From a virus (taxonomy: Duplodnaviria > Heunggongvirae > Uroviricota > Caudoviricetes): a stretch of DNA of 10,267 nucleotides. Numbering within the stretch: position 1 is the stretch's first letter; each line of letters starts with the position of its first letter. Shown here piece after piece: positions 1-3,000 of this stretch. The stretch lies in the IMG/VR virus record IMGVR_UViG_2671180906_000011; one strand, written 5' to 3'. The position numbers were made by a program.

Positions 1-3000
1 ATCAGATGGCTGCTTAAAAAAAGAACAAATGGTAGTGTCCGCTATTGTCAGTACACCTCAGGATACGCGAAAGCACATCCCGAACTGATAAGCGCATTCA
101 TGACCACGACGGCGGCAAATTTTGCCACGCTGACAGAGCGGGAGATTGCCGAAGCGGAACAGGTAACAACAATCAACGTTAAAACCGGAGAGGTGGAATC
201 ATGAGCGAACCAAAATTTGGTGAAAAATTTTACAAGCACAACGGACGGATCACGATTCTGCAAATAAGCGCAGCTACACCAGGCTGGTGGGTTGAAACAG
301 ACGAAGGATCCTCACCCGTGGCATCATGGGAGCTTTGTGTGCTTAGTTACCCTGACCGCGATGTGTATCAGGATATTCTGCCTGTGATATCCACTGACAA
401 AGGCATGAAACCCGTAGACATCAAAAACATGGGGTTTCAGTGCGTAATGCTCACTGAAAAAATGATGGAAGAGATGAAAAAGAACAATGCCGGATCGCTT
501 CACTGAGGTGGCAATATGACAGCACAAATTGCAGCTTACGGGCAGCTGGTGGGCGACCCGCTGGTAAAACAGAGCAGCAAGGGCACACCGGAGCCGCCAA
601 CGGAGAACTACGCAGACCTGAGAAATGCAGTAAATCGCACTTACGCAGACATGGGGCTGAGCAAATTAGCAGAGTAGGAATATCAGAACCACACCACGCA
701 GCCGGAGCAATCCGGCTTTTTTTGCGTCATTTGAAACGGTATGGAGCACTACTGGCTTTTCGTCACGGTCCGGCATAGTTACTATCTGAAACAAACAGAC
801 ACAACAGAGGAAAACGCAATGCCGATGAAATTTGATGAGATACTTAAACAGCGTGATAAATACCATGCTGACAACATGGAGACGATGAATATCACTGATT
901 ACCGCGCATTTCTGGAAACGGGGGCGCTGATTGAAAAGGATCATCATGGTTTTGTTCGTTGCGCGCTATCCGGTGAAATGCTGGCAGTAAATCCTGAACA
1001 GACAGATGCATTGATAGAATTTCTGAAAGGGATCAGAGACTGAGCACCCATACAGCACATACAGCCGGAGCAATCCGGCTTTTTGTTATTTTTTGTAAAT
1101 TATTTGTTCGTGGTTGTTCCACGTTGTTCACTGAGCGGATCGGCATATTTTACCCGAACTGAATCATGATTATTCTCGCCCGTGGTGCCAGGACGCTGGG
1201 GCCACTTTCCCGCCTGTTAATGTGCTCGCCAATATTCATTACCAGGCGGGAAAACGATCGGTGCGATTACTGATTTCCTTATGAAAAACGGTTGAGTGTT
1301 TGCCGCGTCCTGGAGTTCCTTACTTAACCCCAGGACTTTTTTTATGCAGAGAATAATCGAATTACGCCAGCAGAAAACCGCCATTAAAAATCAGATGCGC
1401 GACATGCTGGAGAACGCTGAAAAAGAAAACCGCAGTCTTAACGATGCTGAGGGCGCAAAATTTGACGAATTACGCGCTAAAGCTGAATCCCTCGATAAAG
1501 ACATTTCCCGCCTTGAAGCCATTGCAGACGAAGAGCGCAGCAAGCCAGGTAAAAGCAGCCAGACCACTGACCCCGCAGAACTACGTAACTACATTCTGAC
1601 CGGTGAAACCCGCGCATTAAGTACAGGCGTTCCCGCTGATGGTGGTTATACCGTTATCCCTGAACTGAACACCGAAATCATGCGAATGCTGGCGGATGAA
1701 TCCACCATGCGTCGCATCTGTACCGTGAAGAAAATCAGCAGCAACGAGTTTAAGCAGCTTGTTTCCGCTGGCGGTGCGACCGTTAACCACGGTGAAGAGG
1801 GTAAGGCACGCGAACAGACCAGCACCCCGCAGATTAACGAGGTGAGCATTAAGCTGTATCCGGTCTATGCGTACCCGCGCACCACACAGGAAATCGTGGA
1901 TTTTTCCGATGTGGACATCCTTTCATGGCTGACGGGTGAGATTGGCGACACCTTCACGGAAACCGAAGAAAGCGATCTGGTTGTGGGCGACGGTGACAAA
2001 AAAGCAAAAGGTTTTTTATCCGTACCCCGTGCAGAGAAGAACGACAAAGAGCGTGATTTTGGTACGTTGCAGGTAATTAAACCTTCCGAATCTCTGGCGT
2101 GGACATCTGCGGACCCGCTGATCGACCTGAAATTTGCATTACGTAAAAAATACCGCAAAAACGCGGTCTGAGTGGTTAACTCCACGACGGCGGCAAAACT
2201 TCAGAAGGTGAAGAACGCGAACGGTGATTATATCTGGCGCGACCGTTTACAGGCGGGTGATCCTGATACGTTGCTGGGCCTTCCGGTCGAATATCTGGAG
2301 TTTATGCCTGATAACGTTATTGCCCTGGGTGACTTCAAACGCGGTTACTACATTGTTGATCACGAAACAGGTGTTCGCACCAGACCGGACAACCTGACAG
2401 AACCAGGATTCATCAAAATTTTCACGCAAAAATATTTAGGCGGTGGCGTGGTGGATTCGAACGCGATCAAGATTCTGGCACTGCCGGAAGACGACGATTA
2501 ACAGCATACAGAAGGGGCTAAAAAGCCCCTTTAGTGTTTTATGGGTGAAAAAATTATGAAGAGTATGGAAATCCGGTCATCGGAAATCACCACCAGCGGA
2601 GCCGGTACGCTGACGGGCTACGTTGTTCGCTGGGATAAGCTTTCAGAACTGTTATGGGGTGAGTTTTACGAAAAATTCCAGCGGGGGGCGTTTACTGAAT
2701 GGCTTGCGGCGGGTAATGACGTTCGCGGCCTGTATGAGCATGACCACAGCATGTTACTGGGGCGCACCCGTTCCGGCACGCTGAAACTGGAAGAGGACGA
2801 AACAGGGTTACGCTTTGAACTGACCCCACCGGATACCAGTACAGGGCGCGACGTTATCGAACTGGTTAAGCGTGGGGACATCTCGGGGATGAGCTTTGGC
2901 TTTCGCTCCCGTAAGGATGTATGGGATACCACAACAGATCCATGCGTGCGCACCGTGCTGGTGGCGGAACTGTACGAAATTACCGTTACATCGGTACCGG

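Follow-up and report, generated by a model that had tools for sequence, protein, structure and literature searches.

Small genes and twin terminator hairpins ahead of the packaging operon in a degenerate Escherichia coli satellite island

The locus and its island

A 10,267-nucleotide stretch of DNA from the IMG/VR virus record IMGVR_UViG_2671180906_000011 (Caudoviricetes), referred to below at its full length as the window, carries three small open reading frames (ORFs) and two identical hairpins immediately ahead of a head operon. The three ORFs, which an initial annotation had described as moron-like cassettes closed by the hairpins, were all confirmed on the plus strand: ORF1 (201–506, 101 aa), ORF2 (516–677, 53 aa) and ORF3 (819–1043, 74 aa), each with a Shine-Dalgarno (SD)-like motif 5–8 nt upstream. 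The 23-mer that forms the hairpins, CAGCCGGAGCAATCCGGCTTTTT, occurs exactly twice in the window, at 699–721 (T1) and 1062–1084 (T2), and none of 200 dinucleotide shuffles gave any match. The head operon is equally real, since matches to the Pfam models Phage_capsid, Peptidase_S78 and Phage_portal identify an HK97-type capsid gene, a prohead protease gene and a portal gene 3' of the small ORFs. We conclude that window 201–1086 very probably forms the end of the early transcription unit (replication/accessory) in an E. coli capsid-forming phage-inducible chromosomal island (cf-PICI) of the EcCIEDL933 type.

In megablast searches of complete E. coli genomes, the region was found in chromosomal islands (compared island loci carry L-numbers and BLAST matches H-numbers below). 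The best match, NZ_AP042583, was 99.6% identical over window 60–1340 and 98–99% identical over the remainder. Its 14.5-kb island lies between roxA and phoQ, with the gene order integrase, helix-turn-helix (HTH) regulator, Icd-like, DUF4222, primase, small genes, HK97-type capsid, protease, portal, head closure, connector, HNH, TerS (P27 family) and TerL. Besides the three genes recognised by Pfam, the other head and packaging genes are represented in the window by ORFs of fitting size that are 98–99% identical to annotated genes of L001, and the complete cf-PICI module (capsid, protease, portal, connectors, HNH, TerS, TerL) is present. The left arm (integrase, alpA-type regulator, primase/replicase) was seen in the near-identical L001 and L019; in the window it would lie beyond an insertion-sequence end at position 59. 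On the right, terL (6054–7715) is followed by one 93-aa ORF and then by phoQ (8807–10267, minus strand), with which the window ends, and tail and lysis genes are lacking, as expected of a cf-PICI. The assignment to this class is thus based on the Pfam capsid, S78 protease and portal matches, the 98–99% match to the annotated NZ_AP042583 island and the shared architecture with EcCIEDL933. Intact relatives share a canonical gene order that begins with the primase or RepA helicase and continues with the phrog_1231 gene, the optional ORF1, ssb, the perC-like gene, a terminator, the optional ORF3 with its terminator, the leader and the capsid gene.

ORF2 proved to be a deletion scar, an in-frame ssb'-'perC relic. 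Alignment to L002 and L007, which carry an intact ssb (136 aa) and perC (82–90 aa), revealed a 508-bp deletion that joins SSB residues 1–25 in frame to PerC-like residues 55–82, the junction falling in the microhomology CACCG at 586–590. ORF2 and the PICI perC-like allele of L007 and L008 have the same 28 C-terminal residues. The initial annotation had recognised no family for any of the three proteins; ORF1 and ORF3 match PHROG families (see below), and ORF2 matches the Pfam PerC model, if narrowly (22.9 bits vs a cut-off of 22.6) and at profile positions 50–77 of 90 only. Compared with a full-length PerC protein (PF06069, ~90 aa), ORF2 has lost parental residues 1–54, the part that matches 'transcriptional activator' PHROGs in the full-length protein, and of an oligonucleotide/oligosaccharide-binding (OB) fold of ~100 aa it retains SSB residues 1–25 only. 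The full-length island SSB matches TIGR00621; ORF2 matched no NCBIfam model. As the OB fold and the N-terminal two-thirds of PerC are both gone, ORF2 is most likely non-functional. Homology to an ordinary replication protein, which the initial annotation had named as evidence that would count against its proposal, was therefore found in part, as ORF2 carries SSB residues. The same fusion is present in L001 (phoQ site), L019 (tqsA site) and L148 (RepA helicase, no ORF3), and it is an uncommon allele: most genomes that match the junction probe carry separate ssb and perC genes. Since T1 follows an intact perC in all relatives examined, it is the ordinary perC terminator. Two RefSeq names are misleading here. 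The fusion is entered as a 'PerC family transcriptional regulator', and a 37-aa ORF that runs across T1 (window 665–778; L001 12606–12719) as a 'trigger factor'; ORF2 is in this sense an annotation trap.

ORF1 belongs to phrog_27268 (E = 5e-69) and is embedded in an operon. Its ATG overlaps the stop codon of the preceding gene (ATGA), to which it is translationally coupled, and ORF2 begins 9 nt past its own stop; for these reasons it is not closed by a terminator, in contrast to the initial description. The preceding gene is a small phrog_1231 gene of which the window retains the 3' half, truncated by an insertion sequence (61–201, plus strand; by tblastn, 51% of the L001 protein is covered at 100% identity); the full-length copy in L001 matches phrog_1231 with E = 2.4e-51, and in intact islands the gene follows the primase/helicase gene. 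No match to ORF1 was found in Pfam, NCBIfam, PADLOC or PDB sequence searches, phrog_27268 being the sole match, and tblastn of 50,697 phage records returned no homologue. Full-length homologues (at least 83% identity) occur in E. coli islands only. L003, L004, L005 and L008 are without ORF1, and there the phrog_1231 gene adjoins ssb. ORF1 is thus an optional, E. coli-only orphan gene of PICIs. Its substitutions are few and mostly synonymous, at a divergence too low for this to weigh much. An AlphaFold2 model of ORF1 was discarded (pLDDT 47.8, from an alignment of five near-identical sequences), and no fold search was made with it.

ORF3 and its family

ORF3 encodes a 74-aa acidic protein of phrog_1957 and occupies the last slot before the morphogenesis module. 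Comparison with alleles at a synonymous divergence (dS) of 0.24–0.40 gave a ratio of nonsynonymous to synonymous divergence (dN/dS) of 0.04–0.13. Together with the disruption in relatives of the overlapping minus-strand ORF, and with a start codon that distant homologues and an indel in L003 both fix, this ratio established ORF3 as a real gene under purifying selection. The longer reading of 100 aa from the ATG at 741 (a mechanical ORF, 741–1043) was rejected, because the L003 indel (1 nt) breaks its frame and the distant homologues begin at MP...; the minus-strand ORF at 666–947 contains stops in L002–L004.

An exhaustive HMMER search combined with a profile search yielded an ORF3 family of 67 clusters (74–90 aa), all of unnamed proteins; two further candidates, P0032 and P0038, were false positives (repetitive proteins without an informative domain). 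Members with a named organism come from Enterobacterales only (Escherichia, Klebsiella, Citrobacter, Enterobacter, Salmonella, Pseudescherichia, Xenorhabdus and Arsenophonus), and the conserved positions are Y28, a DHHGF motif, A56, E60, Q61, D63 and L69. ORF3 had no match in the 50,697 phage records by tblastn, and a DNA search of the phage collection was likewise empty; a phage origin was set aside on these DNA and protein results. Only six of 72,556 plasmid records matched, 16–17-kb circles among them. All genomic contexts examined were satellites. In Enterobacter/Klebsiella cf-PICIs (L012–L014), ORF3 is followed by a 220-nt gap and the cf capsid gene, and in Xenorhabdus cf-PICIs (L015/L016) a homologue likewise stands before the capsid gene. 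The homologue is the last gene before a ClpP–capsid fusion module in Klebsiella islands L009–L011, in E. coli non-cf PICIs ORF3 stands ahead of a capsid/decoration/TerS module of another kind, and in 16-kb circular elements of Arsenophonus the homologue follows terL. The pre-capsid homologues of Klebsiella, Enterobacter and Xenorhabdus satellites share 32–47% identity with ORF3. Between E. coli islands and those of Enterobacter or Xenorhabdus, capsids are 65–68% identical and ORF3 proteins 32–38%, which looks like co-divergence of ORF3 and capsid in a conserved slot.

In the other genera, ORF3 lies 9–18 nt past the upstream gene with no terminator between them, and a terminator-like hairpin stands 3' of ORF3. 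A conserved perC–ORF3 pair was considered and rejected: the upstream gene in other genera showed no similarity to PerC or phrog_1231, and the pairing is specific to E. coli. Several of these records had features of their own. Two Arsenophonus nasoniae records of 16 kb (L017, L018) and a 17-kb Klebsiella record (CP018459.1, H150) have the size and gene content of cf-PICIs and were deposited as small circular 'plasmids', possibly representing satellites in excised or extrachromosomal form. In Xenorhabdus NJAK01000002.1 (L015), two inverted, back-to-back cf-PICI-like copies fill positions ~1–11,400, each with its own ORF3 homologue and with capsid–protease–portal genes on both strands.

As the initial annotation had stated for ORF1 and ORF3, neither showed a known function or fold. 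For these two proteins, no significant family was found in Pfam, NCBIfam or PADLOC (a DUF1398 match at E 0.03–0.1 was below the cut-off and was dismissed), and PADLOC-DB gave no match to ORF1, ORF2 or ORF3 at E 0.01 or better. Single-sequence searches of the PDB with ORF1 and ORF3 returned only E values above 0.2, and the ORF3 profile matched residues 83–121 of N.BspD6I at E = 0.002, a weak lead only. The structural model of ORF3 was confident, with an alpha3-beta3-alpha arrangement, and matched no known fold and no HTH or other DNA-binding fold.

What such a protein does may be approached through its properties: it is small, has a net charge of about −5, bears no DNA-binding signature and is dispensable. 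It is conceivable, although we would put this somewhat below an even chance, that the ORF3 product is a dispensable modulator that binds another protein, either of a helper or competitor phage or of the late machinery of the island. The stronger proposal, that the family is a dedicated satellite protein which has held its slot from the common ancestor of the Enterobacterales cf-PICIs onward, has passed into two further PICI types and could manipulate a helper-phage protein or time the satellite's own late expression, seems unlikely; if true, ORF3 would represent a new class of small satellite effector. A further possibility is that ORF3, ORF1 or both are minimal anti-phage (immunity or abortive-infection) or anti-defence effectors in a defence hot-spot. 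The two regions that flank the cf-PICI packaging operon are variable and 'expected to encode immune systems' (10.1101/2025.02.11.637232), and both genes are satellite-specific and polymorphic for presence. On the other hand, the PADLOC searches were empty, ORF3 holds its position across genera and is not swapped for other cargo, and single proteins of 74–101 aa with no recognisable domain are atypical of defence systems. We consider this role rather doubtful for these genes; it is not exclusive of a protein-binding role for ORF3.

Hairpins, leader and the joints between modules

Both hairpins were listed by a terminator scan (7-bp stem with five G–C pairs, 4-nt GCAA loop, T-run), and folding energies of −15.7 kcal/mol for T1 and −14.1 kcal/mol for T2 (z = −4.0 and −5.4) agree with the initial call. 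T1 pairs 700–706 with 711–717 around the GNRA loop GCAA and runs into a tract of seven U (718–724), and the identical T2 pairs 1063–1069 with 1074–1080 and is followed by five U. Both lie on the coding strand past a stop codon (22 nt after ORF2 and 19 nt after ORF3, respectively), so that GC-rich stem-loop, U-tract, strand and position are all those of intrinsic terminators. T1 was present after perC in every related island examined, with a loop of GCAA or GAAA, both GNRA. The hairpin is not specific to PICIs. An exact-match scan that allowed A or C at the variable loop base returned at least 120 copies of the 22-nt hairpin plus T-run from unrelated phyla, ~0.14 being expected by chance (596 Gb, one genome per species), with matches from Bacteroidota, Bacillota, Arenimonas and others. 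It is a generic, convergently recurring terminator design, and the recurrence gives indirect support to terminator function; for the same reason, the identity of T1 and T2 is not by itself proof of duplication or co-acquisition. A third copy with a GAAA loop was seen in non-cf E. coli PICIs (L003 8640–8655, L008 7289–7304, L147 4866–4881, L149 3742–3757), downstream of the capsid/decoration genes and before terS, one terminator thus punctuating several module boundaries.

Many BLAST matches to non-cf islands span exactly 699–1084, from hairpin to hairpin, and homology to non-cf PICIs stops exactly at 1084; T2 thus stands at the border of the left arm and the packaging module. Presence and absence of ORF3 were surveyed in 28 informative E. 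coli loci. ORF3 was present in 17, 16 of them with hairpins on both sides (for L151 the pattern picked up T1 alone); the T1 loop in these loci is GAAA in 11 and GCAA in 6, and the T2 loop is GCAA wherever it was found. Of the 11 loci without ORF3, 10 have exactly one hairpin, always with a GCAA loop. A perC–hairpin–leader junction lacking ORF3 was found in L006, L007, L008 and eight more loci, and in ORF3-less islands the single hairpin is joined to the right flank of T2. The 3' end of perC in L007 is identical to that of the window and runs directly into the T2-type flank; this junction is the exact product expected of recombination between T1 and T2. Both states of ORF3 occur with cf and with non-cf modules. 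Among 5,426 complete genomes, in which O157:H7 is over-represented, 539 contain the cassette, and the empty cf-type junction is present in roughly 120–140, as estimated from the single-piece share in a spread sample. The homology breakpoints between mosaic island types fall in the hairpins.

These breakpoints could be taken to mean that the hairpins are primarily protein-binding or recombination sites that move the ORF3 cassette rather than terminators, and the copy at another module boundary of non-cf islands (L003 8640–8655) fits such a role. However, the hairpin consists of nothing but a canonical GC stem, GNRA loop and U-tract. It lies on the coding strand behind stop codons and, as a generic terminator would, turns up with identical sequence in unrelated phyla, and no recombinase is associated with the cassette. 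An identity of 22–23 nt suffices for occasional homologous or slipped-strand deletion. We regard a dedicated recombination site as highly improbable.

The arrangement of the cassettes had suggested to the initial annotation that ORF2 with T1 and ORF3 with T2 were two independently acquired moron-like units carrying phage-interference or host-modulating cargo. Each of the two ORFs does have a terminator behind it, ORF3 with one hairpin is present or absent between otherwise adjoining sequences, and the cassette (44% G+C vs 52% for the island) lies in a recognised variable region. What stands of this proposal is an optional unit of ORF3 and one hairpin, with boundaries in the hairpins; ORF1 is not terminator-closed, and for ORF2 the proposal is already refuted, as this ORF arose when a deletion fused the ssb and perC genes of the island itself. 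T1 stands behind an intact perC in all relatives. Recent independent acquisition of ORF3 is unlikely as well, given that no convincing promoter of its own was found and given the homologues in the same slot in satellites of other genera, there close behind the upstream gene with no terminator before them. Two independent acquisitions are therefore decidedly improbable. The polymorphism is better read as loss than as gain, because no promoter of its own was detected for ORF3 and the gene keeps the same slot in other genera: the balance tips modestly toward ORF3 with its terminator being the ancestral arrangement, from which ORF3 would have been lost by T1×T2 recombination.

Between T1 and ORF3 lies a conserved 97-nt spacer, the 5' leader of ORF3 (722–818, plus strand), with a weak promoter-like sequence, TTTTCG (757–762)-17-TACTAT (780–785). 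Divergence of the spacer between the window and L002 is ~7% vs a dS of 0.31 in ORF3, and because it is this much lower than at synonymous sites, something in the spacer is constrained, be it a weak or activator-dependent promoter or a 5' untranslated region.

The 259-nt leader of the packaging operon (1085–1343, plus strand) contains a conserved block, an inverted repeat and a terminator-like hairpin. Just past T2, at 1091–1130, are TTTGTAAAT and three GTTGTTC-like repeats, with TCATG at 1165–1169; TTTGTAAAT and TCATG are invariant among E. coli, Enterobacter/Klebsiella and Xenorhabdus islands, and the remaining leader is not conserved. The block at 1091–1130 with TCATG may be an operator or promoter of this operon. 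At 1206–1253 lies an inverted repeat of 17 bp, 94% complementary and with a spacer of 14 nt (RNA fold −26.6 kcal/mol, z −2.3). A terminator-like hairpin at 1307–1336 (7+3 bp stem, −14.7 kcal/mol), with U7 ending (1343) exactly at the capsid ATG, holds in its 3' arm the only SD-like AGGA; it is conserved in the E. coli cf-PICIs L001, L002, L006 and L007 and may act as an attenuator or in translational control of the packaging operon. With such a leader beside it, ORF3 might be thought to regulate the switch from early to late expression, acting on the packaging-operon promoter/leader as activator, co-activator or anti-terminator partner, the twin terminators being part of a timing circuit. Its invariant position immediately upstream of three different morphogenesis modules, the cross-genus block just past T2, the hairpin that sequesters the capsid SD and the weak match to the DNA-recognition region of N.BspD6I would all suit this role. 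Yet ORF3-less E. coli cf-PICIs keep identical leaders and capsid genes, the Arsenophonus homologue stands after terL and not before the capsid gene, ORF3 is acidic with no DNA-binding fold match, and in the literature overexpression of AlpA alone drives island reproduction. A switch regulator is thus improbable.

Taken together, we propose the following scheme. T1 would end the early ssb–perC unit, and T2 is likely to insulate the packaging operon from early transcription, which would leave the capsid genes to be expressed only from a weak promoter of their own, activator-dependent and located in the conserved leader. The repeated hairpin likely also provides a short homologous linker for module exchange, possibly incidentally, and it is at this linker that ORF3, ancestral to the slot and no recent moron, would have been lost. 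Binding of another protein by the ORF3 product is the weakest step of the scheme.

Several observations weigh against this scheme. The locus survey is biased, as L140–L158 were retrieved through ORF1. The direction of change, loss vs gain, is read from slot conservation in other genera and not from a phylogeny of events, and the T2-type loop at all ORF3-less junctions fits one ancestral event spread by recombination as opposed to recurrent deletion. As the hairpin is convergent in unrelated bacteria, T1 and T2 may have arisen separately. The interval between T1 and ORF3 has no sigma-70 match of 9/12 or better (best 7/12), so that ORF3 would lack an evident route of transcription if T1 is efficient. 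Size, charge, dispensability and position are the sole grounds for the protein-binding role. Finally, the ORF2 fusion has been retained at two integration sites and in no fewer than four mosaic backgrounds, so that ORF2 may have some residual function.

The island copy in the window is itself degenerate, through an IS600-family insertion, the ssb–perC deletion and a capsid nonsense codon. Window 1–60 is a 100% match to the terminus of an IS600-family element together with the 3' end of its transposase gene, the right end of the element occupying 1–59 (plus strand), and homology to intact islands begins at 60, within the phrog_1231 gene. By this comparison an IS600-family element truncated the phrog_1231 gene, and the left arm of the island has been cut off (separated or removed). 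In the HK97-type major capsid gene (1344–2501, plus strand), codon-by-codon comparison with L001 identified a TGG to TGA change at 2169–2171 (W276*), which splits the Pfam Phage_capsid match across two ORFs; because of W276*, the window copy is predicted to be defective in building its own capsid. The strongest terminator-like hairpin of the window (2511–2532, 9-bp stem) lies between the capsid and protease genes and may set the capsid:protease expression ratio. An Rfam scan of the whole window found no RNA family at E 1 or better.

In sum, the initial annotation had identified real features in the right biological neighbourhood, a variable accessory stretch just upstream of a satellite packaging operon, in a region that is mostly ordinary. 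The cf-PICI class, recently described and actively studied, and its variable regions, of which this is one, were already known, and the present results leave the current understanding of how satellites work unchanged. New, on a modest scale, are the satellite-restricted ORF3 family, whose slot is conserved and whose model matches no known fold, and a generic terminator that doubles as a module joint. The hairpin marks points of module swap and loss and is useful for delimiting modules when satellites are compared, and ORF3 is a reasonable candidate for knockout in EcCIEDL933.

Comparison with known systems

A moron, as conceived by Hendrix and Juhala, is a gene that comes with a promoter and a terminator of its own and is inserted at a point where relatives have two adjoining genes. 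ORF3 with its terminator resembles a moron in being present or absent between perC and the packaging leader, in its lower G+C content and in having a terminator of its own; ORF1 is also optional, and ORF2, a deletion product, does not show this presence/absence pattern. The best sigma-70 match of ORF3 reaches only 7/12, yet the spacer is far more conserved than synonymous sites. Unlike in morons, recent acquisition from outside is not supported, as the slot is shared with Enterobacter/Klebsiella and Xenorhabdus cf-PICIs and no phage donor was found, and the homologues in other genera would be co-transcribed with the upstream gene. A second parallel is provided by the mosaic lambdoid phages, in which, according to modular theory, conserved linker or boundary sequences stand at module junctions. 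Here, too, a short shared sequence coincides with breakpoints (between perC alleles, between ORF3-containing and ORF3-less islands and between cf and non-cf capsid modules); unlike the lambdoid linkers, it is merely a generic, convergent intrinsic terminator of 22–23 nt, and its role in recombination is possibly incidental.

PerC-like genes are known cargo of Gram-negative PICIs, and the PerC-like protein of EcCIMP1 (EcCIMP1_025) represses LEE, the enterocyte effacement locus, whereas LEE1 fusions were reported to be unaffected by those from EcCIEDL933 and EcCICFT073 (PMC11773190). ORF2 shares its C-terminal 28 residues with one PICI allele (L007, L008) of this family, which includes PerC of enteropathogenic and Pch of enterohaemorrhagic E. 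coli (PF06069), and its gene is in the usual place after ssb. It differs in having 25 SSB residues instead of PerC residues 1–54, and it is a remnant, not a working member.

The closest known system is EcCIEDL933, described by Alqurainy et al. as the prototype cf-PICI, a 15.4-kb island of E. coli O157:H7 with int, alpA, rep and a complete HK97-like packaging module, whose induction depends on alpA and in which only packaging-module genes were mutated (10.1101/2022.09.08.507074). The text passages available from the EcCIEDL933 literature contain no mention of ORF1 or ORF3. The window differs from this island in having ORF1, which the O157 island lacks, in the collapse of ssb and perC to a 53-aa fusion, and in its IS600 end on the left, its capsid nonsense codon and its roxA/phoQ site. 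Otherwise the two share the same architecture at ~90–99% DNA identity over shared parts, in the order primase/rep, small genes, ssb, perC-like gene (these last two collapsed in the window), hairpin, ORF3, hairpin, capsid, protease, portal, connectors, HNH, TerS and TerL, and the O157:H7 loci L004 and L005 hold ORF3 between both hairpins at 95% identity.

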